Origin: Candidatus Latescibacterota bacterium
Lineage (GTDB): Bacteria; Latescibacterota; UBA2968; UBA8231
Direction of reading: 5' to 3'
NCBI GenBank assembly: GCA_965203175.1
Contig: OZ241867.1
Location: 1-64,000, forward strand
DNA: 64,000 nt
Part shown: positions 15,794 through 45,750 of the stretch, piece by piece
How the letters are laid out: the number at the start of each line of letters is the position of its first letter
Numbering within the stretch: the first letter of the stretch is position 1
Notes under the pieces: generated by a model
Told to the model about the DNA's origin: nothing
Database searches by the model: none
What the model saw: only the letters and a program-made list of their open reading frames with translations
Program-made: the position numbers and the translations under genes

Positions 15794-16687
15794 ATGTCTG
15801 ACCTATACCCAGTCATTGAAGTGACGCGAGAATCGGTCAGAGAGTCCGAGGATATGGGGAGCAAAGATAAGTTCTGGTATTTCCATCCGAAGGCAGAAGA
15901 AGGAGATTGGCTCTTCAAATACCCCCGCCGTAATACAGGGGAACACTGGGCGGAAAAAATTGCCGCCGAGGTCGCGGCCTTACTGGGAATTCAACATGCG
16001 AGGGTGGAATTGGCGGTATTTGAAGAAGACAAAGGATCTGTGACGAAATCGTTCGCACAAGAGGATCAGGAATTGATCCACGGTAATCAGATGTTGGCAA
16101 GAGCCGTCCACAGTTACGACCGCAGGAGAAGATTTCATCAGTCAAGCCATACTTTGGCGAATATCTGGCAGGTAATGGACCGTATTTTTGTAGAGTCTGA
16201 AGACGCAGAACAGGCAAAGCTCTGCCTTGCAGAGTACGTGGTCCTAGACGCGTTGATTGGTAACACAGATCGCCATCACTAGAATTGGGGCATACTACGA
16301 GAGAGGAAGGACGACCACTGGGAAGGGTTCGTGGCACCATCGTTCGACCACGCCTCATCGTTGGGTCGGGAGCTTCAGGATACGCGACGCGCTAGGATAC
16401 TGGCAGAAGATCGCATAGGTGACTATGTTGAAAAAGGACGCGGCGCGATCTACTGGTTGGAGGACGATCGGCGCGGGCCTAGCCCATTAGAATTGGTACG
16501 GCGGGCTACTTGCAACTATTCAGACCTTTTCCGTCCGGCGCTGACGAAACTCGAAAAGTTGGACGAGAGATCCGTGGATAACCTCGTAAACCGTGTGCCT
16601 AGTGATTGGATGCCACCTTCAGCTAGAAAATTCGCGATTGCGCTGATGTGCCATAATCTCGAACAATTGCAGGAGCTTCTCCGATGA
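15794..16687 (+). pseudogene. HipA-like kinase interrupted by an in-frame TAG at 16280-16282
   Basis: GSKDKFW, LFKYP, EHWAEKIA, LDALIGNTDRHH*NWG...APSFDHASSLG all in one frame (297 codons). Confidence 0.88.
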
Positions 16688-17430
16688 GCACGAGAACCTT
16701 ATTTCTGGCTTGGCAGGACAAAAAGCCTAGCAAGGCATGGTTTCCGGTGGGTCGGCTGGATGCTGATGTCGAACGTTCGTTCTATCGCTTTCGCTACATC
16801 GGCGGCGCAAAGAGAGCACAAGAGGAGGTGGGATTCCTTCCGTTGATTGATTTTCCCGATTTGAACGAAGATTATCAGGCCGCGGAGTTGTTTCCGCTAT
16901 TCCAAAATCGGGTTATGAATCCGGCAAGGCCGGACTTTATTGACTATCTTCACAGGCTGGATCTAACCGAGGAAGCTGACCCCATTGAGATTTTGTCCAC
17001 CAACGGAGGCCACCGCGTAACGGACGCTTACGAGGTTTTTCCAAAGATCGAGAAAGACGACACCGGGAGCTTCTCTTGCCGATTTTTTCTACATGGCTGG
17101 CGACATATCAATGAAGCGACTAAAGATCGAATTGACCACCTTGAGCACGGTGAAGAGCTGTACGTCACACTGGAATTGACCAATCCTGCGACCGGGTTGG
17201 CAGTGCAGATGCAGACGACGGATTACTATATGATCGGATGGGCACCGCGTTACTTGGTGGCAGATTTGGTTGCGGCGATAGCCGAAGGGCCTAGTAGATT
17301 TGGGGCGAAAGTGGTACGGATTAACCCTCAGACTATCCTATTGAAGCAGCGCGTATTGATTGAGATGTACGGCTGCTGGGATAAGTACGAACCAATGAGT
17401 AGCGAGGATTTTAAGCCCTTGATCAATTGA
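16684..17430 (+). CDS. HipA N-terminal(HipS)-like plus HIRAN domain protein
   Basis: LFLAWQ, FPVGRL, LFPLFQNRV, FFLHGWRH, IGWAPRYL; ATGA overlap with the kinase. Confidence 0.75.
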   Translation: MSTRTLFLAWQDKKPSKAWFPVGRLDADVERSFYRFRYIGGAKRAQEEVGFLPLIDFPDLNEDYQAAELFPLFQNRVMNPARPDFIDYLHRLDLTEEADPIEILSTNGGHRVTDAYEVFPKIEKDDTGSFSCRFFLHGWRHINEATKDRIDHLEHGEELYVTLELTNPATGLAVQMQTTDYYMIGWAPRYLVADLVAAIAEGPSRFGAKVVRINPQTILLKQRVLIEMYGCWDKYEPMSSEDFKPLIN

Positions 17431-18158: not shown

Positions 18159-20699
18159 TCACGGTTCACTTCCTCCCCTCTCCGCTTCTCGTCCCCACAC
18201 CCGTCCAATCGCCGCCCGAATCTTCCCCTCCATCCGCTCCACCAACTCCCGATTGGCGGCGACAAGGGACTGCTCGGCTTCGATTTCGGCGACGATGGCT
18301 TGCTGCGTTGCCAGTGCCGGAACGGGTATTTGTATCTTCTCCAAATTTCCTTTTGTGATGTGAACGAGGCCGACTCCACCATGAAGATTCTGTTCAACCT
18401 CGGCGACCGCTCTGTTCAGTGCGTAGAGTAAGTACATTCTCGTTGCCCGAATTTGATCGAATTCGACCTTGAAAATGTGCTGGTTCAGTATGGCCTTTCC
18501 ACCATTCCATATATGCGCTCCAAAAGATGTCCCCCGCGATCCAGACCATGAGAATAGAAGCTGTCCTTGGTTGATAATGTACCGATCTTTTACCTCACCA
18601 GTGTAATAGTTGAACTCACTGTCAGGCGCATTTAGGTTCTGAATTCGTACAATCGGGAGGCCACCACTATCAGCAGGTTTCCAGTCCTGTGGCTTAAACG
18701 CACGTCCATTGATAAGGTTACAAACCTCGCCAATCGCTACCATCGGCCACTCAGGATCAACCACAATCTGCGGCCGATAGTTGTCAATCACCGCCCGCGC
18801 CCCATCTATCACCCGCTGATACCCCTCAATCTCCGCCACAATATCCCGCTGCACTTCCAACGGCGGCAAGGGGATTTTTATAGCCATGACATCCGACTGA
18901 TTGATACTTGGATATGCGCCTTTCCCCATCATACCGACCATTTGTTTGACCACATAATCCGAAAATAGGGACGCTAAAATAAAAGCAGGCTCCACTTGGG
19001 TACAATCCGCCCGTAGAACAGCAAAGCCAGTGGAAGCGATCGCACGGGTTCGTACCTTTTCGAGAAAGGTGAATGCTTTCAGGTTAGGACGCACAGTTGA
19101 AAGCAAAACATCTCCGCTACGAAGGCCACGTCGCGCTCGACTTGGAGCTTGTGACGATGAGACTTCGCTGTATCCTAAGAAACGACCTGTTTCATTCTCT
19201 ACGGACGATATATCAACGTAAAAGATACTCTCATTTGGATAGGCCAAAACCGGATTGACCGTCTCCGGGTTGATAGCGCAAATATCTTTCAGTTCGACCA
19301 TCGGCCATTCGGAGTTAGTCAAGGTACTAACACGATACCTTTCCCCGCTCAGATTATACTCCCCACCCGCCGCAATCTTCTCCTTCTCAGCAATCAGCCC
19401 AAGCGCAGTTGTGTAATCCACCCCAGGTTCCGCCACACCATCGCTCGTCACCGACTCCCCCGTCCGCAGCCGCCCCAGATACTCCCCAAGCTCCTCCCTC
19501 ACCTTCAGTAAGTCATTCTCCGCAATCTCCCGCCGCTGCGCCCCCAAATCAAACCCATCATTCTCCACCTTAAAAAAGGCAACGCGATCCGTCTTTTGCG
19601 CCAGCGCCTTATCCAGCAGCAGAATGGACGTCTTAACCCCCGAATAAGGCTGAAACACACCCGCCGGCAGCGAAATGACAGCCACCAGATAATTCTCCAC
19701 CAGCATCTTGCGTAGCTGCTTATGGGCAGTCTGGTTCTGAAAGATAATGCCCTCCGGCACAATGATACCGGCGCGCCCCGTAGGCGTCAGATGCTCGGCT
19801 ATATAATCGACGAACAGCACTTCGCTGCGTTTGGATTGCACTGAAAAACGGCGATGCGGACGAATGCCGCCCTTCGGCGACATAAACGGCGGATTGGCCA
19901 AAATCACATCGGCATACTCATTCCAGCGCTCCTCGCTAGTCAGCGTATCGTACTCGGCAATATGCGGCTCGACAAAGCCGTGCAGATACAGATTCACCAG
20001 CGACAGCCGCACCATATCGGGCGAAATGTCATAGCCCTCGAAATTGTCCGCGAGTTTTCCTTTTTCATCCGGCGTCAGCGCACTGTTTCCCTCGTCGTCG
20101 GTATTGGCTTTGAGAATGTGCTTGTACGACGAAATCAAGAACCCAGCAGTGCCGCAGGCCGGATCAAGCACAGTCTCGTCTTTCTTCGGGTCAATAACAG
20201 AGACAATGAAGTCGATGATATGGCGCGGAGTGCGGAACTGCCCGGCGTCCCCCTGCGATCCGAGGACCGAGAGCAGATATTCAAACGCATCGCCAAGCCG
20301 CTCGCTGTGATCGTACGTAAACTCGTCGATAACCTTGAGAAAAGCGCGCAAAGTCTCCGGGTCGCGGTAGGGCAAATAGGCGTTGTTGAAGATGTCGCGG
20401 AACAGCGGCGGAATGCCCGGATTTTCCGGCATCCGGGTGATCGCCTCGGCGTACAGATTCAAAGTCTCGTGGCCGCCCAAGCCAGCGCGCACCAATTGAG
20501 GCCAGCCATAGCGGGCAAAGTCACCGGCAAAAAACGTGCGCTGCCCGCCCAACTCCTCGCTCTCGGCGTCAATGTCGTCCATAAACTTGTAGATGAGCGC
20601 AATAGTAATCTGCTCTACTTGGCTCTTCGGATCGGGCACTTTGCCGACGAGGATGTCGCGAGCCGTGTCAATGCGGCGTTTGGTAGCGGTGTCAAGCAT
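18159..20699 (-). CDS. Type I R-M methyltransferase fused to specificity subunit (HsdM-HsdS)
   Basis: GQFRTPR, DPACGTAGF, NPPF, then two TRDs with IPLPPLEVQRDIVAEIE / IPVPALATQQAIVAEIE in one frame. Confidence 0.92.
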   Translation of the reverse strand: MLDTATKRRIDTARDILVGKVPDPKSQVEQITIALIYKFMDDIDAESEELGGQRTFFAGDFARYGWPQLVRAGLGGHETLNLYAEAITRMPENPGIPPLFRDIFNNAYLPYRDPETLRAFLKVIDEFTYDHSERLGDAFEYLLSVLGSQGDAGQFRTPRHIIDFIVSVIDPKKDETVLDPACGTAGFLISSYKHILKANTDDEGNSALTPDEKGKLADNFEGYDISPDMVRLSLVNLYLHGFVEPHIAEYDTLTSEERWNEYADVILANPPFMSPKGGIRPHRRFSVQSKRSEVLFVDYIAEHLTPTGRAGIIVPEGIIFQNQTAHKQLRKMLVENYLVAVISLPAGVFQPYSGVKTSILLLDKALAQKTDRVAFFKVENDGFDLGAQRREIAENDLLKVREELGEYLGRLRTGESVTSDGVAEPGVDYTTALGLIAEKEKIAAGGEYNLSGERYRVSTLTNSEWPMVELKDICAINPETVNPVLAYPNESIFYVDISSVENETGRFLGYSEVSSSQAPSRARRGLRSGDVLLSTVRPNLKAFTFLEKVRTRAIASTGFAVLRADCTQVEPAFILASLFSDYVVKQMVGMMGKGAYPSINQSDVMAIKIPLPPLEVQRDIVAEIEGYQRVIDGARAVIDNYRPQIVVDPEWPMVAIGEVCNLINGRAFKPQDWKPADSGGLPIVRIQNLNAPDSEFNYYTGEVKDRYIINQGQLLFSWSGSRGTSFGAHIWNGGKAILNQHIFKVEFDQIRATRMYLLYALNRAVAEVEQNLHGGVGLVHITKGNLEKIQIPVPALATQQAIVAEIEAEQSLVAANRELVERMEGKIRAAIGRVWGREAERGGSEP

Positions 20700-20700
20700 A

Positions 20701-21591
20701 TTAGCTCCGGTAAACGAACCCCTCTCCAATCTTCCACACCCCCTTCTCCCGAAAAGCGGGAATAGTCTGGCGACGGGCGGCGTTGGTAACAGCAGGTGCC
20801 GAGAACCCATGTTGCTTGATATAATCCGACAGCCGGATAATGGCCTCCCCCTGCAAATAGCTCAGCCTCTTGTGCAGCGACTCCACGAGCGCCAACGCCA
20901 GAATATCTTCCATCGTCCTAGTCGTTTGGCGGCCCCCATAGTCCCTGAACGCCTGATAGTACCGCTCCTTCTCCGAGTTGCGAATAATAAGGCGCGGCAG
21001 TCCGAGCTGGATAAGTTGAAAATTGATCAGAACCCGCCCCAAGCGGCCATTGCCATCGCAAAAGGGATGGATGGTCTCAAAATCCAAGTGAAATCGGGCA
21101 ATTTTATCGAGGAAGTAGGAGCCGAGATCGCTGGAATACTCGACGAGGATGTCATCTATCATGCGCTCGACATGCTCAGGTGCCGGCGCAATATGAGTCC
21201 CCACCCGCACGTATTCCCCCTGCTCGCGAAAGCGTCCGGCGATGGCATCGTTAATGCCGCCGATGAGCATCTGATGCAAGAATAGTATCAGGTCTTTGCT
21301 CAGCTCGCTGTCTTTAGCTTTGGTGCGTTTGTATTCTGTGACGCGGGCTAGATTTTTCGCCTCGAAGACTTCCCGCACAGACACATTGCGGGACAACATC
21401 TGCTCCAACAGGATTCGCTCTGTCTCCTCAAGAGTGAGCGTTGAATTCTCAATAGCGTTCGAGTTATACACACTCTCGGGGACCTCCACTTCGTCGATCA
21501 TCGACAGCAGCGATTCCTTGCCTTGGCGCAAGGTATCGTACGCTCGCTTCAAATCTTGGATGCGGTTTCTTATCAGCTCTGTAGTCGCCAT
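20701..21591 (-). CDS. Fic family protein with N-terminal inhibitory helix and C-terminal HTH-like domain
   Basis: HPFCDGNGRLGR catalytic motif, SNAIEN inhibitory motif, C-terminal LSDY...AVTNAARRQTIPAFREKGVWKI (alternative start 21609). Confidence 0.9.
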   Translation of the reverse strand: MATTELIRNRIQDLKRAYDTLRQGKESLLSMIDEVEVPESVYNSNAIENSTLTLEETERILLEQMLSRNVSVREVFEAKNLARVTEYKRTKAKDSELSKDLILFLHQMLIGGINDAIAGRFREQGEYVRVGTHIAPAPEHVERMIDDILVEYSSDLGSYFLDKIARFHLDFETIHPFCDGNGRLGRVLINFQLIQLGLPRLIIRNSEKERYYQAFRDYGGRQTTRTMEDILALALVESLHKRLSYLQGEAIIRLSDYIKQHGFSAPAVTNAARRQTIPAFREKGVWKIGEGFVYRS

Positions 21592-21606
21592 ATCATTATT
21601 GTATCT

Positions 21607-21791
21607 CATTCACGGTATATTGGCAAATTCCCGTGAATGAACTGAGAAAATGGATTCCATTCACGGCTTTTTAGATAAATTTCGTGAATGAATCAGCAAA
21701 ATGGATGCTATTCACGGTATATTGGCAAATTCCCGTGAATGAACCGAAAAAATGGGTCCCATTCACTGTTTTTTCGGATAAATACGTGAAT
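21607..21791. repeat. Four 51-bp tandem units, each with an ATTCAC(GG)...(C)CGTGAAT inverted repeat
   Basis: Units start at 21607, 21658, 21709 and 21760; units 1/3 and 2/4 are most alike. Confidence 0.9.
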
Positions 21792-21802
21792 TGCGGGGCT
21801 TC

Positions 21803-24340
21803 CTAAGCGACGAACTGGTTTAGAGACACGTAATCCTTGACATACTCGGGAACGAGCCTGCGGTATGACTCCGGCACTGTGCGAAAGTCGCTGGAAGAAA
21901 AGGCCGGATTGGTCGCCAATTCGGCGAAACGCCGATTCTCAATGATGTCTCGGGTCTGCCCGCTGGTCAGGTACGCCTTGAAGTACGCCCTGATCGCCGT
22001 GATGGACTCAGCCTCGTCGGGCTTGTGATCAGCGACGAATTTGGCAAACTCCTCTTCGAGCAACTCGTCCCTCGACTTAAAACGCGGAATGAGATCAAAA
22101 ACCTTCTCCAATATCTCGCGCAAGGTTACGCGACGATCCACCGCAGCGGCTTGGCGCAGCTTGGCGAGGGAGTAGTACTCCTCGGGCTTGTCGAAAACTT
22201 CCCGATTCACATAGGCGATGGCGCGATCCCATTGGCCCGCCTCGATAGCTTGGGCAATGACGTCGTTCTCGCGCACCTCGTCGGCAAAACGGTCGAAGAA
22301 CATCCGGTCAATCCTCATCCCCTCGGAACCGATCTGCTCTTGCTCGATCGTCGAGAGGAAGTCGTCTCCCAAGTGCTCGTACGTGTCGGCATATACAACC
22401 GGCCTCGGGTCGTCCCTGTCCCTATCTCTCTTATCTCTCAGCCGAGGCAATTCCAATATCTCGTCGTAGTTGAACTCATTCTCGAAGTATTGGCAGTTGC
22501 CAAAGAAGTCGAACAGCTTGAACGTCGTCTTCTCCGTGTCAGCGACAACGTCTGCGGGGCGGTGCCCTATCATCTGACCGAGGAAATTGTGCTTTCTGGT
22601 GCCGCGCCCCTTGATCTGAACGAAATCCGTCGGCGAGAATATCGGCCTGAACAGGCCCAAGTTGAGAATGTCGGTGCAGTCGTAGCCAGTAGTCATCATG
22701 CCGACGGTCACGCATACCCGCGCCTTACTCGTCCGGTACTCGCGCATGAAGTTGCTGGACCCCGAGAGGTTATTGTTGGCAAAGTTGACCGTGAATTGCT
22801 GGGCATCCATCACATGCGACGTAACCTGAACCGCGAAGTCCGACTGGTACTTGCCCGGAAACATGCGGTCGGCAATTTCATTGAAGACCTGCGTTAGCTT
22901 GGCCGCATGTTCTTGACTCACTGCGAAGACGATGGACTTCCCAATCTCCCCGCTGATCGGGTCGCGGAGCGCATTCTCCAAAAAGGTCCGGCAGAAGACC
23001 GCGTTGGTAGCTTCCGAGAAAAACTCCCGCTCAAAATCGCGCTTTTTGAACGCCTCCTCCTGCTGCTCGCCTTCATCATCGGTAAAAGACACCACAAAGC
23101 CCTCGTCAGCGAGAAGCTGGGTAGTCACCTCCGTCCGTGCGTCAACGACCCGAGGGTTGATCAGATACCCATCGCGCACCCCGTCGAGTAACGAGTAGCG
23201 GAACGTCGGCTCGCCACTCTCGCAGCCGAAGGTGCGGTAGGTGTCGAGCAACAACCGGCGCTCCACCTCGCGCGGATCGCGCACATGCGGGCCGCTCGCC
23301 TGAGTACCTCTAAGGTAGTCGCGGGGCGTCGCGGTCAGCCCCAGCTTGTAACCGACGAAGTAATCGAACACCGCGCGGGCGTTGCCGCTGATAGACCGGT
23401 GCGCCTCATCCGAAATCACCAAATCGAAGTCCGTGGGCGAAAACAGCGACTGGTACTTGTTGTTGAACAGCAGCGACTGAACAGTCGTGACCACAATGTG
23501 CGCCCGACGCCAGTCGTCGCGTTTCTCCTTGTAGATGACCGTGTCGAAGTCGTTCGCCAAGTACGGGACAAACGACTTATTCGCCGCTTGGTCTTCCAAC
23601 TCTAGCCGATCTACCAAGAAGAGGACGCGGCGGGCGTTGCCAGTGCGGAGAAACAGCTTGATAACAGCGGCGGCCACTAGCGTCTTCCCGGTGCCAGTAG
23701 CCATCTCGAACAGGAATCGGTCGCGGCCGTCTCGGACCGTCCGCTGCAAACCGCGGATCGCTCGTAGCTGGTAATCGCGCAAAAAGCGCAGCCCGTGCGT
23801 CTGAATGTATCCGGAACGCTCGTCCTCGTTGCGCCACCCAGCCTCTGCCGCATAGTTGGGCCGCTGCGTGAGGACGATGTAGTCGTCGCCAACCCGTTCA
23901 TCAATCAGGCGCTGCGAATTAGGCTCGACCTGTTTGTACCCTTCCACCGAGTCCGGCGACGGGAACGCCGTGATAATATGCGGATTGCCGCGCTCTAGGT
24001 CCCAGAAGTAGTGCAGATTGCCGTTGGAGAGGATGACGAAGCGGCAGTTCAGCGAGCGGGCATAGCGGCGGGCCTGCTCCTTGCCGACCAGTGGGTTTTT
24101 GTCCTCGGACTTGGCTTCCAACACGATCAACGGAAAACCCCGGTCGTCGATGAGCAGAAAATCGACAAAACCTCGACCGGAACGCTCAAAATCATCGCCT
24201 AAGCTGTCGAGGTCGTCGCGTTTGAGAGCGACATGCGCCTCCAAGCGGATATTGGCCGGTCCATTGTCGTCATCGAAGAATCGCCAACCAGCGTTTTCGA
24301 GCAACTGATCGATTTTATGCCGAGCAGCAGCCTCGCTCAT
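21803..24340 (-). CDS. hsdR: Type I restriction subunit R (EcoAI/EcoEI-like)
   Basis: MSEAAARHKID, VDFLL..LEAK nuclease motif, MATGTGKT, DEAH, GLTATP, QIKGRGTR. Confidence 0.92.
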   Translation of the reverse strand: MSEAAARHKIDQLLENAGWRFFDDDNGPANIRLEAHVALKRDDLDSLGDDFERSGRGFVDFLLIDDRGFPLIVLEAKSEDKNPLVGKEQARRYARSLNCRFVILSNGNLHYFWDLERGNPHIITAFPSPDSVEGYKQVEPNSQRLIDERVGDDYIVLTQRPNYAAEAGWRNEDERSGYIQTHGLRFLRDYQLRAIRGLQRTVRDGRDRFLFEMATGTGKTLVAAAVIKLFLRTGNARRVLFLVDRLELEDQAANKSFVPYLANDFDTVIYKEKRDDWRRAHIVVTTVQSLLFNNKYQSLFSPTDFDLVISDEAHRSISGNARAVFDYFVGYKLGLTATPRDYLRGTQASGPHVRDPREVERRLLLDTYRTFGCESGEPTFRYSLLDGVRDGYLINPRVVDARTEVTTQLLADEGFVVSFTDDEGEQQEEAFKKRDFEREFFSEATNAVFCRTFLENALRDPISGEIGKSIVFAVSQEHAAKLTQVFNEIADRMFPGKYQSDFAVQVTSHVMDAQQFTVNFANNNLSGSSNFMREYRTSKARVCVTVGMMTTGYDCTDILNLGLFRPIFSPTDFVQIKGRGTRKHNFLGQMIGHRPADVVADTEKTTFKLFDFFGNCQYFENEFNYDEILELPRLRDKRDRDRDDPRPVVYADTYEHLGDDFLSTIEQEQIGSEGMRIDRMFFDRFADEVRENDVIAQAIEAGQWDRAIAYVNREVFDKPEEYYSLAKLRQAAAVDRRVTLREILEKVFDLIPRFKSRDELLEEEFAKFVADHKPDEAESITAIRAYFKAYLTSGQTRDIIENRRFAELATNPAFSSSDFRTVPESYRRLVPEYVKDYVSLNQFVA

Positions 24341-25368
24341 CACTCCTCCTCCACCAACACCGGCTCCCGCTCCAACCGAATCCCAAAGGTCTGTTCCACC
24401 GCATCCCGAATCTCACCGGCCAAAGCGAGAACTTCGCGGGTCGTCCCACCGCGATTGACCAAAGCCAGTGCGTGTCGCTCTGAAATGCCAGCGCCGCCCC
24501 TTTGCAGCCCCTTGTGAAATCCCGCCTGCTCGACCAGCCAAGCGGCCGGAACCTTAACGCCAGCCGCATCGGGAAAGCTCGGGACATCGGGATAGCGATC
24601 CTTTAATGCGGCAAAGGCTTCCGCGTCGATGACTGGATTCAAGAAAAAGGAACCGACAGAGCGGGAGTTGGGATCTTGCGGGTCGATGACCATAGACTTG
24701 CTGCGGCGGAGCACCAGCACAGTGTCGCGCACCGTAGCCAAGGTTGGTCGATCGTCATCTACGTGCCGGCGCAGCTCTGGATAGCGGATTTGCGGCTGGC
24801 CGCTAGCATCCAAGCGATACGTCACCGAGGTCACAATAAAACGGTCGCGGTCGGCTCCCTTAAAACGGCTCTGACGATAGGCAAAGCCGCATTCTGCGGG
24901 GGCAAACGTGATTTCCTCCAAAGTCTGCCGGTCGAGCGCCCGCACTTCCACAATGGTGTCTTTTACTTCTTGGCCATACGCGCCCACGTTTTGGATGGGC
25001 GTCGCACCCACCGACCCAGGGATGCCCGACAGACACTCCACACCGGCCAAGCCGCGCTCCACGCAACACTGCACAAATTCATCCCAATCCTCTCCAGCCG
25101 CTACCTCGACAGTCTCGCCATCAAACACCACACCGCTAAGTCCCACTTTGAGCACCAAGCCGCTGTACCCCGCGTCGGCAAAAAGCACGTTGCTGCCGCC
25201 GCCGAGCACTTGCACAGAAAGGCCCTCATCAGCCGCCCACGTCAAGCAGGCGCGCATCTCGTCTAAAGAGGTGCACTCGGCCAAATAGCGCGCGGGGCCA
25301 CCGAGGCCCATGGTGGTGAGCGGAGCGAGTGGGACGTTCTCGCGGAGGATGCAGAACGGCTTTGCCAT
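24340..25368 (-). CDS. murB: UDP-N-acetylenolpyruvoylglucosamine reductase
   Basis: LGGGSNVL, GIPGSVGATPIQNVGAYG, SVGSFFLNP, HALALVN, LEREP. Confidence 0.96.
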   Translation of the reverse strand: MAKPFCILRENVPLAPLTTMGLGGPARYLAECTSLDEMRACLTWAADEGLSVQVLGGGSNVLFADAGYSGLVLKVGLSGVVFDGETVEVAAGEDWDEFVQCCVERGLAGVECLSGIPGSVGATPIQNVGAYGQEVKDTIVEVRALDRQTLEEITFAPAECGFAYRQSRFKGADRDRFIVTSVTYRLDASGQPQIRYPELRRHVDDDRPTLATVRDTVLVLRRSKSMVIDPQDPNSRSVGSFFLNPVIDAEAFAALKDRYPDVPSFPDAAGVKVPAAWLVEQAGFHKGLQRGGAGISERHALALVNRGGTTREVLALAGEIRDAVEQTFGIRLEREPVLVEEE

Positions 25369-28099: not shown

Positions 28100-29250
28100 A
28101 GTAATCCATGTCCGACTACGCCTAGAAATTTTCTCAAGGATTTGCTCTATATAGATAAACTACCGGTAGAGATTCATTGATCCGAAAGGTAAAGAAAGAG
28201 GATACTGTGATGTCTTGGGATGATAGAATAAGATTATGTTTTTCTAATTTATGGAATAGACTGAGTCAAGTGAAAGGTGAGAAGTATTTAGATTTCGACA
28301 AGGAATACGCTGATGATTTGTTAGAAAAATTTATTTGTGATATTTCTGAACATGGAGAAGATAGAGTCGGGGGAAAATATCATGAATTTTCTTCTCGATT
28401 TTGGGAGATGTATTTAGTGACTTCATTTTTAGAAGATGAATTTTGTTTACTAAAGAAGAAAATTGAAGGGCCTGATATTAAAATCAAGTTGGGCGATCGA
28501 ATTATTTGGGTAGAGGCCGTAGTTCCAGGTCCAGGAGGAGAGATGAATAATGATAGAGTTCCCGATTTAGAATATGGAGTAGCAAGTGATGTCCCTGACG
28601 AGCAAATAAAGTTGCGACTTACTAATGCTTTTAGTGAAAAATTTTATAAATACAAAAACTATCGGGAGAAAGATTTGGTAAAAGAAGAGGACGATTATGT
28701 AATTGCTATCAATGGTTCTTTAATAGGACGAAGTGAACGTGATGTTCCCAGAATCGTTCGAACCTTATTTCCCATTGGAAACCTAGTCCTTCATGTACGT
28801 GCGTCTAATAATTTCAATCAGAAACCAGAGATTGTAGGGCACTCTCACGAATATAAAAGAGAGATCATAAAATGTGAAGGATCAAGAGTGCCGACAGATC
28901 CTTTCTTGAACGACGAGTATGCTGGAGTATCTGCTGTGCTATATTCTGATTGCAGGCTCCTTACTTTTGACTATACCGAGAATTTAAATTATAGGAGATT
29001 AAGTAGATCGTTTACACTAGTTCATAATCCTATAAGGCATCTGGTACATACTTGGCGTGCTAGCGGACTTTTACGGTGTGGAACAGGATACTATGTGACC
29101 TCAGACATTGAGGGTAAAAATAAAAAAGACAGTTGGGTAATTAAAAATTATACTGATCTCTCTAAGATAGAGGAAGCCGCATCTTCGGTTGGCGAAATAG
29201 CAAGGGCTGTTTCTTATGTGAAATCGACCGAAGATTTTGTACTAAATAAT

Positions 29251-30410
29251 GGCGTTGTTGCATGAAAGCTGTGTTCGGGTCTTGAAATGAGTCAGGCTCT
29301 TCGGTTAGATTGGTTCGTGGTTTCCAGCAAGAAACACGTTCCTTTCTTCCCAAAGAGCCTGTGATGAGCAAAGTATCTGGCAGTTCGCCCTCGGTCAAGT
29401 CGCAACCGGTGTATCGGGTTAAGAATTGGTCGTCGTATAATCGGGCGTTGGTGGCTCGTGGTAGCCTGACGGTGTGGCTGGACGATGGTCTGTGGAAGCA
29501 ATGGTATGCTCAGGGGCCATCGCAACGGGGTGCTCAGTTTGTCTATTCGGATCCAGCGATTGAATGGATGTTGACGATGCGGGTGTTGCTTGGGTTGCCG
29601 TTGCGCCAGACGCAGGGGTTTATCCAATCGCTGTTGGACTTGATGGGGTTGGCCTTGGCCGTGCCGGACTACTCGACCTTGTCGCGTCGCCAAGGGGCCT
29701 TGGCGGTGGAGTTGCCGAAAAAGCAGCCCGATAGCCCGGCTAGCCCGATGCACTTGGTAGTGGATTCGACGGGTTTGAAAGTCTATGGCGAGGGCGAGAG
29801 GAAAGTCCGTCAACACGGCTGGACCAAACGGCGCACGTGGCGCAAACTGCATGTGGGGGTCAACGAGGCCACCGGCGAGGTGGTCGCGCAGACGTTGACG
29901 TCCCATCGGATCGATGATGCCTCGCAGGTGGCCCCTCTGTTGACCCAAGTCGACGAGGCGGTGGAGGCGGTAGGCGGCGATGGGGCCTATGACAAACAGA
30001 AGGTGTTCGACGCCTTGGCCACGCGGAGTGATCCCTCGATTCGGCCGATCATCGCACTGCGCAAAGACGCTACAATCCATCAGCATGGTAATTGTAAGGT
30101 CCCCCCGTTGGCGCGCGATGAAATCCTGCGGGCCATACGACGAAAGGGACGCAAGGAGTGGAAACAGGCCAGTGGCTATCATCGACGCTCGTTGGCCGAA
30201 ACGCAAATCTATCGCTATAAGCACCTCATCGGCGACAAGCTGAAGGCGCGTAGCTGGATCAACCAACAGGTCGAAAGTCGCCTCGGCTGTGCCCTCCTCA
30301 ATCGAATGATCCATGTGGGCAAACCCCAGTCGTATCGAGTAGAAAAAATCAACTGAACAAAAAACAACATTCGACAATGATGCCCCAGATATGATTCATG
30401 CAACAACGCC
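29251..30410 (+). mobile_element. IS5-family insertion sequence (IS903 group), 1160 bp
   Basis: Perfect 16-bp TIR GGCGTTGTTGCATGAA / TTCATGCAACAACGCC; 9-bp target duplication CTAAATAAT at 29242-29250 and 30411-30419. Confidence 0.96.
29364..30356 (+). CDS. IS5-family DDE transposase
   Basis: NWSSYNRALVARGSLTVW, PDYSTLSRR, VDSTGLK, GDGAYD, GYHRRSLAET. Confidence 0.95.
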   Translation: MSKVSGSSPSVKSQPVYRVKNWSSYNRALVARGSLTVWLDDGLWKQWYAQGPSQRGAQFVYSDPAIEWMLTMRVLLGLPLRQTQGFIQSLLDLMGLALAVPDYSTLSRRQGALAVELPKKQPDSPASPMHLVVDSTGLKVYGEGERKVRQHGWTKRRTWRKLHVGVNEATGEVVAQTLTSHRIDDASQVAPLLTQVDEAVEAVGGDGAYDKQKVFDALATRSDPSIRPIIALRKDATIHQHGNCKVPPLARDEILRAIRRKGRKEWKQASGYHRRSLAETQIYRYKHLIGDKLKARSWINQQVESRLGCALLNRMIHVGKPQSYRVEKIN

Positions 30411-40273: not shown

Positions 40274-40406
40274 TGATTTCTCCGCGCCACTAGGGCCGTG
40301 CAATGCCCCTGCAATCGCTTCTAGCCTACTCCTCGGCCGGCTCCGAGACGACGCGGCATTTTTCGTCTACTACCACGATCCAGACACAAGAAGTTGGGAC
40401 CAACCC

Positions 40407-41417
40407 CTATTGTACAGAGGCCAAGTTATTCAAGCAGAGTGGAGTTTCGACGTTCGAACGAATGAAGGCGATATGATCATCCCGTCCTGGCTTGAGATCA
40501 CGCGCATTGTCTAGGGGGACCACAATCGTCCCCCCACAACAGCGATGGTCTGCGTGACCCAATGCAAAGGCGCTACTCAAATGCGACATAGATCCTGATG
40601 GCACAGTATTAGAGCAGTGCTCTGACAGTTGCGTACATACAATTCTGGTGTCGGGCATGATCTCTCGTAAGACGCTAACGATCTCAGGATTCGGAGCACC
40701 GTAACTCCCGCGACCAAAGGAAAAGACCACAGTTATAGGCTCTACGGCTTCGAGTAACCTCTCGGTGAAGGAACGAATGTCCGCTGCACCCGGACGACCT
40801 CCATGATGTGGGTAGACCAAGATGGGTGCCTTCAGGTCCATATTTCGCATCAGCAGATCGTCCAGTCCGATTCCGTCGATGTCTGCAGGCAGAATGGCCA
40901 CATGCTTACCGGACACGCTTATCCGTATCACCGCACTGATAGAGTTGCTTGTGATCCTCCTCCCTGATCCGTTTTTACTACCTACGCCTTTCAGGACCAA
41001 AGCAGGGCTTGGAGCCATTACTTGGATCTCTATATCGCCAAGATCCTCGCTCTTCCCCGGGAACAAGCCAATATCAAGCTCCAGAGTGTCAGCCATATAC
41101 TTGCTAGCCAGTTCGTAGGTCAAGTCACGCCAGCTCTCTGTTTCCTTCGAAGCGTCACTGTTGAGCACAACTCTGTCGATAGTCACTGTACCCGACGCCA
41201 GCAACCCAACAAGGGCACCGATGTGGTCTTCGTCAGCATGAGATAGATAAACTGTCCGAATCCTCCTAATGCATTGCTGGTCCAAGAACTCCAGGAGCGC
41301 ACTGCGACGTCCAACATCGACGACAATCACTTCGGCATCTCCCACGACTACAGCGCAACTCCCCTGACCGACGTCGAGAATGTACAGATGACGACGTAGC
41401 TTGCTCACAGTATTCAC
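40407..41417 (-). CDS. MBL-fold metallo-hydrolase (ComEC/Rec2 nuclease-like)
   Basis: LDVGQG, SHADEDHIG, NSIS, PAD, PHHGG. Confidence 0.85.
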   Translation of the reverse strand: MNTVSKLRRHLYILDVGQGSCAVVVGDAEVIVVDVGRRSALLEFLDQQCIRRIRTVYLSHADEDHIGALVGLLASGTVTIDRVVLNSDASKETESWRDLTYELASKYMADTLELDIGLFPGKSEDLGDIEIQVMAPSPALVLKGVGSKNGSGRRITSNSISAVIRISVSGKHVAILPADIDGIGLDDLLMRNMDLKAPILVYPHHGGRPGAADIRSFTERLLEAVEPITVVFSFGRGSYGAPNPEIVSVLREIMPDTRIVCTQLSEHCSNTVPSGSMSHLSSAFALGHADHRCCGGTIVVPLDNARDLKPGRDDHIAFIRSNVETPLCLNNLASVQ

Positions 41418-42076
41418 TTAGATTCCCAAGAATCGAAGAACAGGGCTTCGTGACTCTCCGCACCAGTGTTAACTTGGGCATGAAACCTTCTACCCGGCTC
41501 GACACGATGACGAATTTTATCCGGAAGGTTGTCCTTATAGAGCCTTATCTTCTGCTGGGAGTCCCACGCCGGCACAATGGCGTAGAAATATCCTCCCTCA
41601 TCATCAACCTCAGCAACTCGGACGAGCGTACGCCATGGTCTTCTCGCGGGATGGAATGTCCCACCAATCTCACGGAGACTCTTCCTCCAAGCCTCCATGA
41701 GTTCTTCTGGATCTGGACTATTGGTCTTGAGTAGGGCTGGTATGTACCGGAGACATTCGCGACGGATTGTCACATCGACATCAGTAAATGTCGTACAAAG
41801 CATTCCAGGTATACCAGCTTTAGAACACTCTGCCACGAGAAGATCCCCATCGCATGCGGCATAGTTGTGCTTCTTAAGATGATAGTCACAGACTACTGCA
41901 TCCGCAGACTGCTTCGCCTTGGTTACGAACGACTCTGCGGTTTCGACGGGTCCCTCCACCATGACTGGCTCCAACCCCAACTCCTCAACGGGATACCCAT
42001 ATCCATTACGCGCTTCTGGATCGTCGTCCACAATCAGAACTCGACTAATCTCTCTGTCGTGAATCGTCACGGGCAC
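41414..42076 (-). CDS. Response-regulator receiver domain plus unknown beta-rich C-terminal domain
   Basis: VLIVDDD, VVCDYHL (phospho-Asp), CTTF, LLK; no HTH. Confidence 0.78.
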   Translation of the reverse strand: MPVTIHDREISRVLIVDDDPEARNGYGYPVEELGLEPVMVEGPVETAESFVTKAKQSADAVVCDYHLKKHNYAACDGDLLVAECSKAGIPGMLCTTFTDVDVTIRRECLRYIPALLKTNSPDPEELMEAWRKSLREIGGTFHPARRPWRTLVRVAEVDDEGGYFYAIVPAWDSQQKIRLYKDNLPDKIRHRVEPGRRFHAQVNTGAESHEALFFDSWESK

Positions 42077-42078
42077 GG

Positions 42079-44145
42079 TTATTTCCCAAGGATAGGAAGC
42101 TCTACAATGATTACCGCCCCGCCGAGCTCTCCCCTCTCTGTGGCGTCCACTTCCCCACCTAAATCCTTGACTGCATCTCGGACGATCGTAAGCCCAAGGC
42201 CGGTCCCGTTCTTGCGAGTGGTGCGTCCTGGAAGCCAGATATCAGTCTTCCGTATACCCTGGATGCCCGGTCCATTATCGTGGACTGTTAGGGTCCAACG
42301 ATCCTGTGAAATCGACGTCGAAATACTGATAACCCTGTCACGTGTGCCTCCACTTTCAAAAGCCGCTAAGCTGTTGTTCAGGAGATTTGTGACGATAGAC
42401 TCGATAGCGGCATCACTCCCCCTCAAGTAGGGATTCCCTGCATAGAAATCCGTCTGCACTGTAACATCCCTGCCTTTAAGAAACGGATCATAGGTATCCA
42501 ATACCTCCTGCAATAGCTCGTGGAGATCGACACGAGAAACCCTCCGCTTTTCATGGTCAACTAGTTTAAGAGTTGCTGTCCCCAATACAGCCAGGCTCCG
42601 CACCGCTCGCCTAATACCATCAACGGGCTTCTGAAGGAATTTGCTATAGTCGTCTTTGAGCAGCTTCCGGGCCCGCCGAGCAATGGCTTCGACTGACTGC
42701 GAAACCACCTTGACTGGGTTCCCACTTGATTCGTGGGCAAACGTGACGGCTGTAATCCCAGCGGTGCTAAGGGTTCTGTATAGTTGTATCTCTTTTTGAA
42801 GAAGATCAACTTCGCGGTCCCGTGCAGATTCGTAAGTGGCGAATGCCTGCCGAATGGCTTTGTGTGACTTGGACGGCGCTTTGGCGATCGCAGCCTCTAC
42901 GCCTCGTCTTGCCGTGTCTACTCGCCTCGGAGCTGACGTCCGCTTCCGGGAGCGCCGCTTCTCCGCCTCCTCCATCCTCCGATTGGCCATCCATTCCATA
43001 GCGTCTTGGGCGAACAGACGGAGCTCGATGAAGGATTCATCCTCGATAAACCCTGATCGGTCTGTCTTCTGGACGAGTCTTCCACGCCTGTCGGTGACAT
43101 CTATACGTCCTATTGAGGTGTTAGTCCCGGGTCTCTCCTCTGGACTTCGTACACGTCGGAGGTTCATCTCCAACCAATCATCGCCGGGATTGCCGTATGG
43201 GCTTACTCGCAGGCCATTATAATAGAAGTGGACTCCACCGAATTCGCGCAGCCATTCCTGTACTTCTCTAACACTCGACCTTCTGGTGGAAAAGGTCTCC
43301 TTATTGAGTATAAAAACCCACAAATCGAAGGTTGCAGGCGGACTTTTGTAGGCCTTCCCGTCTCTATGTACTGAGACATCTTCGTGACTCGCGACGTGAA
43401 GCCCTTGTCCCTTCCAGTCCACAATGTGCGCACTCGCTTGTCCATTTTTGTCGATTTCCGCCCGCAGATGATACTCCGCGTCTTGGAAATACCGACTACG
43501 CACGAGAGCTTCTATATCTTCGTACTCTGGAGCCACTAACTCCGGACGGAATCCTTCTGGATCAGCCCCGAACGGATCGGCGAGCAGAATTAGTTCTCGG
43601 GCCAACCTTTTCACGTCCGTCCGACTAAAGCCAGTTCTTAATTCTTCAATCCGGATTTCGGTTCCGGATTGGGTCCCCTTTTTCCTCCTTGCAGTCTCCA
43701 CGCTCAGTTCTACATCATCGACGAGATCGGCCGTATCGAACTCTTCCCAATCTATGAGCAGATTATGCTCAGTAGTCTTCTCTTTCCGTGGTAAGGTCGT
43801 CATGAGCGCTCGCTTGCCCATTCGCAGGGCGGCGAGTCTCCCAAGACCCTTACTGCCTGCTGGTATCCTTCCAAGACGTGTCTTTCGCTGCTGTGTCTTT
43901 GTTGATTTACCTAGCACCAGCCACCCGTTGGTAATATCATCAGTCGTCATTCCATTGCCATTATCCTTGACGATAACCACTCCCCCTGCTGCGTCGGTGC
44001 TTTGCAGTTCAACCGTGCATTTAGTGGCATCTGCATCGTACGCGTTCTTGACAAGCTCAAGCACCCCCTTGTCCAAGCTGGGATTTAACTCCTCGCCCAA
44101 GCGCTTGAGTATCTCAGTTGAGAATCGAATCCGTGCTGTACTCAT
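42079..44145 (-). CDS. MORC/GHKL ATPase fused to histidine kinase
   Basis: N-terminal ELVKNAYDA, DNGNGM, GSKGLGR; C-terminal FAHE, NLLNNS, DNGPGI, GTGLGL; no TM segments. Confidence 0.88.
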   Translation of the reverse strand: MSTARIRFSTEILKRLGEELNPSLDKGVLELVKNAYDADATKCTVELQSTDAAGGVVIVKDNGNGMTTDDITNGWLVLGKSTKTQQRKTRLGRIPAGSKGLGRLAALRMGKRALMTTLPRKEKTTEHNLLIDWEEFDTADLVDDVELSVETARRKKGTQSGTEIRIEELRTGFSRTDVKRLARELILLADPFGADPEGFRPELVAPEYEDIEALVRSRYFQDAEYHLRAEIDKNGQASAHIVDWKGQGLHVASHEDVSVHRDGKAYKSPPATFDLWVFILNKETFSTRRSSVREVQEWLREFGGVHFYYNGLRVSPYGNPGDDWLEMNLRRVRSPEERPGTNTSIGRIDVTDRRGRLVQKTDRSGFIEDESFIELRLFAQDAMEWMANRRMEEAEKRRSRKRTSAPRRVDTARRGVEAAIAKAPSKSHKAIRQAFATYESARDREVDLLQKEIQLYRTLSTAGITAVTFAHESSGNPVKVVSQSVEAIARRARKLLKDDYSKFLQKPVDGIRRAVRSLAVLGTATLKLVDHEKRRVSRVDLHELLQEVLDTYDPFLKGRDVTVQTDFYAGNPYLRGSDAAIESIVTNLLNNSLAAFESGGTRDRVISISTSISQDRWTLTVHDNGPGIQGIRKTDIWLPGRTTRKNGTGLGLTIVRDAVKDLGGEVDATERGELGGAVIIVELPILGK

Positions 44146-45434
44146 GGCTTATACCACCATGGCATCTCAGCTAAAACTGAGGTCGTTAAGTGCCTACAGC
44201 GAAGTCGTCTGTTAAGCCAATTGTCCGTTTTGCTAGACTGAAGGCGTGTTATCAAAGCTCGACAGGTGTCCTCAGTTCCATCTTTCGGTAGCAACACCAT
44301 CAGATGGTTTTCTACGGCTACGGCACCTTTACCAAGTACCAGTGTGGCTATCGCACGCTTTCCGCCGTCCGGTCTTGATGTTCTCCTGATAGCTACGAAT
44401 GGCGGTTCAAAGAGACGCCCGGTAAATTTTCGCTTCTCCACGATCCGCTTTTGTTCCCCCCACGCGGGTAAAGAACGTGCGTGGATGTATCGGACTTCTG
44501 GACCTACTTCCTCGTGGCGATGTGGCACCACAGGTCCCACATGAACTGCAAATCGTCTGCCAACACCTCCGGGTTTTGTATCACTGATTGAGCCCCCTGC
44601 CTTGCCTCCCTTCTGCTCCCCAGTCTTCAGGAGGTCGAGGAGGTACACATCAACGTCAGCCCATCGGTCAAACAGACCGAGCGAGCGTTCTCCACGAATC
44701 GAACCCAAAGTGCTGATCATGTTGCGCCAGCGTCCGTAACGACTCCCTGATCGAAGTACATCCGGCAGGATTGCGACAATCCTAGTGCCCTCTTGAGAAT
44801 CTTGTATTACCCTCTCTACGAACATTGCCGCAGCACTGATCCGACCCCGCGCCCATTCGCATTCATCAGGAGCACGAGTGTAGCCGAACGGCGGATTCAT
44901 GATTACAACATCGGTACGATACGAAGGTTGCGAATAAGATAGGAAGTCGGCCTCAACTATCTTCGGAAACGTGCGATCAAGCACTATACTCTCGTCACTG
45001 AGACTGACTCTACAACGCTTTGAAGCCAGCAATGCGAGTCTGGCCTTCGCCAAACGGACGAAATCCGAGGAGATGTCGCAGCCGGCTAGGCATCGTCCCC
45101 AATGGTCGAGGGTTCCCCTAAACGTGTTGGCAATTGGTAGTTTCTTCGCCACAGCAAGTAGGAGGTCGCCTGCACCGCACGTTGGGTCGAGATAGACCTG
45201 TTCGTAGTCCGCACCAACGTCAAGTACCTTTGCTAGCCGCGTGGCCATCTTGGTACTGGTAAAATAGGCACCCTGCTCCCTCAACCGTGGATGCTCCTCT
45301 TCTCGGCGGAGCATTTCTCCAGGCTCACCGTCTAGACACATTGTCAGCTTCCGCTGCCACTCGACAGGACTAAGAGTCTTTCGTCCCTGAGCTAGCTGCT
45401 CAAGCTCGTCAACGTATCGGCGAAATTGTTCCAA
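44142..45434 (-). CDS. N6-adenine DNA methyltransferase (gamma-type motif order)
   Basis: GAYFT, LDPTCGAGDLL, VIMNPPF; TTG start. Confidence 0.85.
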   Translation of the reverse strand: MEQFRRYVDELEQLAQGRKTLSPVEWQRKLTMCLDGEPGEMLRREEEHPRLREQGAYFTSTKMATRLAKVLDVGADYEQVYLDPTCGAGDLLLAVAKKLPIANTFRGTLDHWGRCLAGCDISSDFVRLAKARLALLASKRCRVSLSDESIVLDRTFPKIVEADFLSYSQPSYRTDVVIMNPPFGYTRAPDECEWARGRISAAAMFVERVIQDSQEGTRIVAILPDVLRSGSRYGRWRNMISTLGSIRGERSLGLFDRWADVDVYLLDLLKTGEQKGGKAGGSISDTKPGGVGRRFAVHVGPVVPHRHEEVGPEVRYIHARSLPAWGEQKRIVEKRKFTGRLFEPPFVAIRRTSRPDGGKRAIATLVLGKGAVAVENHLMVLLPKDGTEDTCRALITRLQSSKTDNWLNRRLRCRHLTTSVLAEMPWWYKP

Positions 45435-45750
45435 TGTATTAGTCCGGAGCTACCACACTCAGGTTTAGATACTCAAAGGATACGACTAAAAGGGCACCTA
45501 CTTGAAATCGACAAGTTTCGACCTACATGTTCTCGTAATTCTTTGTTCAACAGTATGTTAGAGTTGGAAATGGTTGCAATCGTGAACCCACTGATTTCAT
45601 CTTTGTTTACGAAGGTACCTTCGCACTCCACAAGCCGCAAGGCATTTCGCCTGCCGTTCGATTTCTTGGAACAATTCCCTCCTATACGGCTCGCGCCAAG
45701 ACTCAGTAAGACCGTCGGATTTTGCGTCTCCCGACCAGCACAAAACGCAA

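Follow-up and report, generated by a model that had tools for sequence, protein, structure and literature searches.

A mobile methyltransferase, MORC-kinase, receiver and metallo-beta-lactamase cassette of Latescibacterota resembling the anti-phage system Ambrosia

Ambrosia (AbrR-AbrA-AbrB-AbrC-AbrD) is a validated anti-phage system of P. aeruginosa in which all parts, including the receiver Asp, are required for defence (10.1101/2025.09.30.679545). Its cognate methyltransferase (MTase) is also required, yet methylation by this enzyme did not protect phage, and more than 500 candidate clusters are known (10.1101/2025.09.30.679545). Here, we describe a cassette with the same order of N6-adenine MTase, histidine kinase/HSP90-like ATPase, receiver and nuclease, a likeness drawn at the domain level only, in 64,000 nucleotides of a Candidatus Latescibacterota bacterium (GenBank assembly GCA_965203175.1, contig OZ241867.1, positions 1 to 64,000, forward strand; hereafter the window). 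Its last gene codes for a ComEC-like metallo-beta-lactamase-fold (MBL) hydrolase, preceded by a receiver with an OB-fold output domain. We propose, with a probability of roughly 45%, that the cassette is a mobile anti-phage, kinase-gated toxin-antitoxin switch in which an antitoxin-bound nuclease is released by a His-Asp relay. This reading draws on the linkage of the genes, a model of the receiver-MBL complex, a natural fusion of the OB to an MTase, swapped tails on the chassis of that MTase, an asymmetry between OB and MBL genes, genomic context and precedent.

Other precedents are older. Soluble kinases made of HATPase_c_3, a His-box and HATPase_c, beside an atypical receiver and a DNA MTase, were described in 2021 (Bellieny-Rabelo et al., PMC8011034), and prokaryotic MORC ATPases and their kinase fusions have been tied to restriction-modification (R-M) since 2008 and 2021 (PMC2292703, PMC8011034). 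In Detocs (DtcABC), a His-Asp relay is required for defence and turns on a toxic effector post-translationally, the effectors being interchangeable (10.1101/2023.01.24.525353). In Hachiman, AVAST and Canu, ComEC-like MBLs (HamM, Avs1a and CanC, respectively) serve as latent DNases; such MBLs move between defence systems (PMC12799240). These descriptions, like those of published systems below, follow the available parts of the sources cited.

The four-gene cassette and its described relatives

The genes of the cassette, in their order of reading, are the following:

44142-45434, minus strand: MTase gene, TTG start, 430 residues
42079-44145, minus strand: kinase gene, 688 residues; soluble paraMORC-type ATPase fused to a histidine kinase (HATPase_c_3 and HATPase_c; no transmembrane segment)
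41414-42076, minus strand: receiver gene; receiver-OB protein of 220 residues (model pLDDT 94.6)
40407-41417, minus strand: MBL gene, 336 residues; ComEC-like MBL-fold hydrolase, predicted nuclease effector (best PDB matches 9ic4 and 30bt, ComEC beta-lactamase-like domain)

A first-pass annotation of the window, made from its letters alone, had described four co-oriented genes with 4-nt overlaps or a 2-nt gap and a GC content lower than that of the surroundings. The open reading frame (ORF) coordinates confirm a 4-nt overlap, a 2-nt gap and a 4-nt overlap, in this order, and the sequence of the junctions indicates that the four genes are translationally coupled. Cassette GC is 0.526 against 0.590 for the genome, within the lowest 3.3% of 1315 windows of 5 kb, and GC at third codon positions is 0.51-0.55 in the cassette genes as compared with 0.77-0.81 in two flanking genes. 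The cassette is present once in the source genome. Pfam matches are N6_Mtase, HATPase_c_3 with HATPase_c, a weak Response_reg and Lactamase_B; PADLOC and NCBIfam scans of the four proteins gave generic matches only, and no NCBIfam curated cut-off was reached. Mean hydropathy is at most 1.55 in every 19-residue stretch, so all four proteins look soluble. The NPPF motif of the MTase, the FAHE box (H471) and the N and G boxes of the kinase, D17/D18/D64/T95 of the receiver and HADEDH of the MBL are all found, with no or almost no variation across the family. Thus, the soluble kinase with a GHKL ATPase as input domain and intact H, N and G boxes that had been read from the letters is upheld by the absence of a transmembrane segment and by the invariant residues. 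So is the ComEC-like MBL as candidate effector, from domain and structure matches: among the four genes, Pfam, PADLOC and NCBIfam gave no match to PD-(D/E)xK or HNH families, nor to protease families, and the MBL had no restriction-endonuclease match in PADLOC.

Linkage was assessed in 85 receiver-anchored loci, 5 from genomes and 80 from metagenomes (the best 80 of 129 metagenome matches); the set excludes 9 generic receiver matches and includes near-duplicates, and denominators are loci with enough room on the side concerned. The MBL gene was found downstream of the receiver in 76/77 testable loci, the kinase upstream in 67/68 and the MTase upstream in 46/47. All four genes in order were found in 45/46, and the recurrence of the gene order elsewhere, raised in the first-pass annotation, is therefore borne out. 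The four genes travel as a unit with their catalytic residues kept; they are horizontally acquired, and the cassette is a real feature, a GC-deviant, mobile, tightly linked four-gene unit with a defence-like distribution.

The cassette departs from Ambrosia in several respects. Ambrosia has a HipB-like XRE gene (abrR) at the head of the cluster and the cassette has none: from the MTase to the ABC ATPase gene, the cassette strand carries no ORF of at least 80 residues, and no shared upstream ORF was seen across the homologous loci listed, where library scans covered ORFs of 105 residues or more. The receiver output is a wHTH (winged helix-turn-helix) in Ambrosia and an OB-fold in the cassette; the effector is an HNH endonuclease in the former and, in the 76/77 loci above, a ComEC-like MBL in the latter; control is transcriptional in Ambrosia and, from our model, predicted to be exerted by direct binding in the cassette. 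No locus with all five Ambrosia parts turned up among the MORC-kinase loci retrieved from plasmids, a genome draw and phages.

The HEF_HK/Response_reg_2 elements (PMC8011034) share with the cassette the soluble HATPase_c_3, His-box and HATPase_c kinase, the atypical receiver and the DNA MTase. Their receiver query had 600 residues and their MTases are mostly of the C5 type, whereas the cassette has a 220-residue receiver with an OB and an N6 MTase, as well as a fixed MBL effector, of which the available part of that paper makes no mention. In addition, and unlike in those elements, neither HEF_HK (PF19191) in the kinase nor Response_reg_2 (PF19192) in the receiver matched at E ≤ 0.1, the receiver giving a weak Response_reg match only; the same library matched the distant kinase of locus L134 weakly. 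Detocs resembles our reading of the cassette in having a relay-gated effector, but it has a TPR kinase, a stand-alone buffer receiver and a receiver-fused effector, whereas the cassette has no TPR match, a single receiver, a separate effector and, as sensor, a MORC ATPase with an MTase. HamM, Avs1a and CanC are likewise ComEC-like MBLs with intact metal ligands; a trypsin- or caspase-like protease releases them by cleavage of the loops that block them (PMC12799240), whereas the cassette lacks a protease and its predicted gate is the bound OB. In ComEC itself, an OB fold acts together with an MBL of this kind, and the metal ligands tested in ComEC are conserved in the cassette (PMC12455585); ComEC, however, has a membrane channel and joins OB and MBL in one chain, whereas in the cassette there is no channel and the two are separate proteins. 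Finally, a classical type II R-M system has a fixed MTase and a sequence-specific endonuclease of known restriction fold; the cassette has no match to such a fold, and its MTase is absent in loci L094, L097, L152 and L162.

By analogy with these systems the cassette is a widespread relative of Ambrosia and not categorically new, and the four-part MBL form may be among Ambrosia's candidates. The earlier statement that no named system has this composition holds for the four-part MBL form, since a literature search (with most subscription papers outside its scope) found no paper naming a combination of MTase, MORC-kinase, receiver-OB and MBL; it does not hold for cassettes of MTase, MORC-kinase and receiver, known since 2021, and Ambrosia was validated in 2025. 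What is new here is the receiver OB predicted to bind the MBL, a two-gene variant of MTase-OB and MBL, and evidence that the OB occupies an antitoxin slot.

The receiver OB domain and its MBL partner

Three parts of the receiver and the MBL are considered in this section:

41666-42076, minus strand: receiver domain, residues 1-137, phospho-acceptor D64 (fold matches to receivers)
41423-41653, minus strand: OB-fold output domain, residues 142-218, candidate antitoxin and module predicted to bind the MBL (folded alone, pLDDT 91.4)
40428-40655, minus strand: Cys/His-rich C-terminal extension of the MBL, with C261, C268, H279, C293, C294, H315 and C328 (94-100% conserved)

The receiver had been described as keeping its phospho-Asp and lacking a helix-turn-helix (HTH), and both points stand; its output domain, the OB-fold at residues 142-218, had been overlooked. 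The receiver domain superposes on receiver folds (Z up to 12.4, root-mean-square deviation 2.8, 117 aligned), and D18 (145/145), D64 (144/145) and T/S95 (145/145) are conserved, with D17 kept, G77, E136 and R145 invariant and R106 found in 131/145. The last 77 residues form a five-stranded, OB-like beta domain. Fold searches with the whole receiver returned receiver domains, RNA-binding receivers (EutV) among them, and the OB surfaced only when folded alone. Its top Foldseek rows were then cold-shock domains, none at E ≤ 0.001, and its VIA Z values of 6.4, 6.3 and 6.1 against EF-P, IF5A and a cold-shock domain lie in a range that possibly means a common arrangement only; we call the fold from nearly all listed matches being OB folds, with cold-shock and S1 domains as neighbours. 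The ESM Atlas gave no usable match for the OB region, and the OB profile, run against the PDB, matched two engineered proteins (E 4e-4) and no informative entry. OB or receiver-OB genes that lack an adjoining MBL occur as orphans at L154:7320-7952 (G052:C5), L149:8087-8965 and L090:189-863.

In the MBL, residues H60, D62, D64, H65, D179 and H204 are conserved in 98-100% of 51 rows and align with H598, D600, D602, H603, D700 and H725 of M. glycerini ComEC, all of which were tested in that protein (PMC12455585). ComEC S728 and the GHP His are replaced, and there is one conserved insertion of about 10 residues relative to ComEC near MBL residues 141-150. The Cys/His tail is family-specific, falls outside the ComEC alignment (the end of which is near residue 253) and is probably a metal site. 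Position 18 (41364-41366) is Gln in the window's copy and His in 98% of the family alignment; given this Gln, the window's MBL could be impaired.

In a model of the receiver-MBL complex, the interface score ipSAE was 0.87, against 0.00 for the best of 3 controls, a mark reached by 116/157 solved and 2/215 mismatched pairs, counts that apply roughly given our own alignments. Runs agreed in at least 96% of contacts, and the partner pLDDT was 90. All listed receiver contacts lie within residues 142-206, i.e., in the OB domain, which covers the MBL helix following HxDxDH, including MBL D64; conservation is higher at the OB contact residues than over the remainder of the OB (0.59 vs 0.43, p = 0.006). 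The receiver is thus predicted to bind the MBL directly through its OB domain, in support of the suggestion of the first-pass annotation that the relay gates the MBL.

The gene arrangement points in the same direction. Across 112 loci, an OB is directly upstream of 85/85 intact MBLs with upstream room, a count biased by most loci having been found through the receiver; conversely, an intact MBL lies downstream of 77/83 OBs with downstream room and is missing from 6/83. The MBL-anchored part is small, with 8 viral loci (two near-identical), 4 genomes and 2 plasmids; the receiver-OB is upstream in 8/8 of these viral loci. In a paired draw of 301 genomes, an OB accompanied 4/4 full MBLs, and a fifth MBL, a partial one, lacked it. 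The OB is an obligate upstream partner of the MBL, and the pair, with the OB gene directly upstream and a 4-nt overlap, is arranged as in the order of type II toxin-antitoxin genes.

A natural variant dispenses with the relay. In L151:6159-9870 (G736:C1), an 890-residue N6 MTase unrelated to that of the cassette, with the architecture MTase-TaqI_C-like-OB, ends in the same OB (E 3e-14) directly before, and overlapping, the gene for an MBL orthologue (E 9e-101); there is no kinase or receiver in this two-gene form, to which L172-L180 and P0270-P0279 also refer. Ten protein clusters share the OB tail of this MTase. Within G736's family, the MTase chassis occurs in 9/91 genomes, 8/9 with the OB tail (one cut short); an MBL gene is next to the chassis in 7 genomes (4 intact, 1 cut by a contig end and 2 broken), and one chassis genome has no MBL within about 1.1 kb. 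Viral contigs held no relative of the MTase-OB fusion. In a FastTree tree of 43 MBL rows, with about half of alignment A3 omitted and a midpoint root, the four fusion-linked MBLs form one clade (support 100) among four-gene members; the tree gives no order of events. An earlier MBL tree was discarded for one mis-framed row and two very long outgroups.

Three rhizobial plasmids carry homologues of this chassis, at 34-36% identity, in which the OB is missing and other tails are found. In L170:4953-8371 the tail resembles the middle and C domains of Xre/MbcA/ParS (E 8e-4 and 1e-4, below the Pfam cut-offs) and is followed by a RES toxin; in L168:4992-7994 and L169:4968-7963 a short tail that matches no family precedes a PIN gene. 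These swapped tails place the OB in a position that elsewhere holds an antitoxin. The chassis proteins of L168-L170 form a candidate family of MTase-antitoxin fusions, and our literature search, within the scope given above, found no paper on such fusions with MBL, RES or PIN toxins. L169 is flanked by a helicase gene and a Shedu-domain gene, and L170 follows an annotated restriction endonuclease. It is possible, and we put it forward tentatively, that either a DNA MTase itself or an MTase and MORC-kinase relay serves as the base for a portable OB-MBL antitoxin-toxin pair, with the MTase as guarded sensor rather than self-marker, and that the wider set of MTase-antitoxin fusions guards against phage anti-restriction.

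According to the kinase-gated toxin-antitoxin reading, the MBL would be a latent, sequence-unspecific DNase, kept inactive by the OB lying over the helix after HxDxDH; in the light of the model, the receiver probably holds the enzyme in check pending a phosphate signal. The sensor would be formed by the MTase and the MORC ATPase, and would respond to DNA that is foreign or carries the wrong methylation, or to an MTase-blocking phage protein. The kinase would autophosphorylate at H471 and the phosphate would be passed to D64; the phosphorylated receiver would then loosen its grip and the MBL degrade DNA, so that the phage would be stopped with or without cell death. The sensor, phosphotransfer and release steps are drawn by analogy with Ambrosia and Detocs, and release may follow either phosphorylation or dephosphorylation.

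In addition to the bias of the OB count and the sub-threshold or unmatched tails, several points weigh against this reading. The model gives no sign for OB-MBL binding, be it inhibition or activation, and the MBL side of the interface shows no excess of conservation over the remaining MBL residues (0.59 vs 0.60). ComEC structures join OB and MBL in one chain, and the complex score could in part be memory of them; the OB alignment retrieved no ComEC chain at E ≤ 10, which counts against this explanation, and the ComEC OB is not among the listed fold matches, though the two may still be alike. The canonical beta-5 lysine is not conserved in the receiver (position 117 is variable), and phosphotransfer is for that reason unproven. 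Enrichment in defence islands is weak (see below), and the flanks within the window itself are housekeeping genes. Lastly, the OB of ComEC supplies DNA binding and raises the nuclease activity of its MBL (PMC12455585).

The last point favours a phospho-gated restriction-like enzyme, near the model of the first-pass annotation, in which the OB activates or tethers the MBL and the MTase marks self: the phosphorylated receiver would dock on the MBL and bring DNA, or link the MBL to the MTase and MORC ATPase at an unmethylated site. The top fold matches of the OB are single-stranded nucleic-acid binders, the MTase-TaqI_C-like-OB fusion beside the MBL looks like a recognition subunit to which a nuclease has docked, the MORC part is similar to the N-terminus of the BbrUII/HgiDII restriction enzymes, and the predicted OB-MBL complex fits equally well. 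We nevertheless regard activation as unlikely: in the model the conserved OB face is occupied by the MBL; the same chassis bears an antitoxin-like tail before a RES toxin; orphan OBs exist, but an intact MBL without an OB was never seen in our loci; the MTase of Ambrosia did not protect phage (10.1101/2025.09.30.679545), and the cognate MTase of the cassette is gone in four loci.

The contact of the conserved OB face with the MBL in the model also bears on Ambrosia-like expression control, in which the receiver-OB would bind single-stranded DNA or RNA and regulate the cassette, the MBL acting alone once made. Infection induces Ambrosia, whose receiver carries a wHTH (10.1101/2025.09.30.679545), the nearest folds of the OB are cold-shock and S1 domains, and RNA-binding receivers such as EutV exist; the cassette, however, has neither a wHTH nor an XRE gene, its genes appear translationally coupled, and the OB stays with the MBL even on an unrelated MTase without a receiver. 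Such control is very improbable.

The MORC-kinase and the methyltransferase

The presumed sensing end of the cassette comprises the MTase and the following part of the kinase:

42961-44130, minus strand: N-terminal MORC-like GHKL ATPase and following region, about residues 6-395 (best PDB matches MORC3, MORC2 and MutL)

The kinase has two nucleotide sites, the N-terminal ATPase and the C-terminal kinase with invariant H471 and N and G boxes; in 39 rows E30, N34, D61, H471, E472, N587, N591, D623 and the G2 box are invariant. The NCBIfam model for BbrUII/HgiDII restriction enzymes matches residues 9-185 with E 8.6e-21, far below the model cut-off. A KTDR motif is invariant in the MORC-like region, and we take it, by analogy with MutL and GyrB, to contain the transducer lysine.

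Distant MORC-kinases (21-29% identity), from plasmids and a draw of 300 genomes, adjoin other receivers and C5, N4/N6 or Eco57I-like MTases. Those at L134:4316-9948 and L132:5596-12179 have another atypical receiver and an effector with an H-P-x-x-H-x-Q motif and no Pfam match; L134 also has an HTH gene and an Eco57I-like MTase, and L132 lies near a Piwi-domain gene. MORC-kinase and receiver variants with C5 or N4/N6 MTases are found at L133:5986-10451, L135:4635-9298, L136:4811-10360, L185 and L186; their receivers share a C-terminal domain different from the OB of the cassette, and one such type is carried by about 40 Campylobacter conjugative plasmids.

The MTase is a gamma-class N6-adenine DNA methyltransferase (Pfam N6_Mtase, E 2.6e-6; DPxCGxGDLL and NPPF) with motifs I and IV invariant in 35 alignment rows; its nearest solved structures are M.BseCI and type I M subunits. 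The C-terminal region (44145-44320) is conserved, with H377, C391, C413 and H415 invariant in the same 35 rows, and these residues could form a metal site. Such conservation is unusual for a target-recognition domain.

The kinase-receiver-MBL core occurs without the usual MTase in four loci. L094 has an Eco57I-like MTase on the opposite strand near the core, L152 an N4/N6 MTase-Mrr downstream, and L162 a C5 MTase downstream, with the kinase and receiver frames split; L097 has no MTase beside the core and its MBL is broken by an insertion sequence (IS). The MTases of other families near the L094, L152 and L162 cores may be bystanders, and the MTase is the loosest part of the cassette. Together with the Ambrosia result, that cognate methylation did not protect phage (10.1101/2025.09.30.679545), these loci argue against the simple self-mark that the first-pass annotation had proposed; its alternative, the sensing of MTase inhibition, fits the data better.

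Spread, insertion site and significance

The receiver family comprises 735 clusters at 50% identity (E ≤ 1e-10). Besides the centre genome, a receiver was found in 0/400 genomes in the phylum of L005, 5/300 in that of L012 (Anaerolineae), 1/250 in that of L009 (Kofleriaceae) and 1/250 in that of L002. Thus, the cassette is rare per genome, yet it is found in at least 8 phyla, in plasmids and in prophages, some of the phylum names behind this count being those to which we take the taxa to belong. The receiver is present on four plasmids; of the three examined, two carry a complete cassette and one lacks the MTase and has an IS inside the MBL gene. The viral loci adjoin a portal-terminase block, an integrase, a CI repressor, a D12 MTase or a Rep gene, i.e., prophage accessory positions, and the portal-adjacent site of P2-like phages is a defence hotspot. 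GenBank phages gave one partial kinase match only.

A PADLOC comparison, of the kind the first-pass annotation had proposed, gave generic matches to the four proteins themselves and a modest enrichment around them: defence-specific matches were found for 10/138 flanking ORFs as compared with 0/68 around ordinary receivers (p = 0.03) or, by locus, for 8/40 cassette loci against 0/14 control loci (p = 0.10). Defence neighbours were classified by hand, and generic AAA, sigma-54, ABC, kinase, HTH and MTase matches were excluded on both sides. The neighbours include a type I HsdR, a GmrSD-like protein, PD-T7-1, and TIR and SIR2 proteins.

The boundaries of the insertion in the window are given by comparison with relatives:

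40317-45726, no strand assigned: whole inserted segment of 5.4 kb, cassette and leader (a contig of run X2 joins 40316 to 45727; flanks joined directly in G009, L123)

The ORF list shows no integrase or transposase gene in this segment, and no target-site repeat was noticed, no repeat search having been run at the insertion ends. The flanks had been described as two metabolic operons; the downstream one, with dimethylformamidase-like, aldolase and dehydrogenase genes, is metabolic, whereas the upstream one is a MacAB-type ABC exporter operon. A full-length receiver is present in 2/31 genomes of the genus, and the closest named copy (L001, a Latescibacterota metagenome-assembled genome) has the same flanks at about 92% identity. 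The downstream flank is found at 88% identity or more in ten same-genus genomes, nine of which were examined for slot content. The slot is empty in G009; it holds a PIN and RHH pair in 4/9 relatives (assigned by Pfam in G003 and by likeness of sequence in the other three), an AAA_21/DUF3696 gene or its partner in 3/9 and a chondroitinase-B-like gene in 1/9. The slot between the MacAB exporter and the dimethylformamidase-like gene (40304-45740; L114-L123, L129) is a hotspot in the genus. For relatives, three RNA libraries (2 studies) yielded contigs that span parts of the MTase, kinase and MBL genes; these may not derive from transcripts, and we do not count them as evidence of expression.

The PIN-RHH pairs in the same slot speak for a selfish addiction or stress module without a phage phenotype, with an unstable receiver-OB antitoxin, a stable nuclease and an MTase-kinase relay that tunes the pair to the state of the DNA; the presence on plasmids and prophages, the weak island enrichment and the frequency of decayed copies speak for it as well. 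We find this quite improbable: a 5-kb unit with two ATPase sites would seem costly for addiction alone, the nearest tested architecture, Ambrosia, protects against phages (10.1101/2025.09.30.679545), and HsdR, GmrSD-like, PD-T7-1, TIR and SIR2 proteins are among the neighbours.

The window holds other candidate defence genes at a distance from the cassette. At 15794-17427 PADLOC finds a PDC-M03A/B candidate system, presumably a HipA-like kinase and a HIRAN protein, with the A gene split into ORFs 15794-16282 and 16331-16687. Type I R-M genes lie at 18162-24343 on the minus strand, with an HsdM-HsdS fusion (883 residues) and an HsdR (846 residues). An AAA_16 (STAND-like) ATPase is found at 14042-15667, and its N-terminus resembles that of ORFs beside the cassette in L002 and L003; at 28177-29262 PADLOC gives weak matches to PD-T7-5 and PD-T7-1.

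MORC-kinases have so far been without a known input or output, and if the OB-MBL reading is true their output would be defined. A receiver that serves as a phosphorylation-controlled antitoxin or activator of a nuclease would, if true, differ from the protease gating of other ComEC-like MBLs. With four proteins that all look soluble, a predicted interface between receiver and nuclease and a natural two-gene variant without the relay, the cassette makes a convenient test case. A second family, that of MTase-antitoxin fusions paired with MBL, RES or PIN toxins, is suggested by the different tails borne by one chassis.

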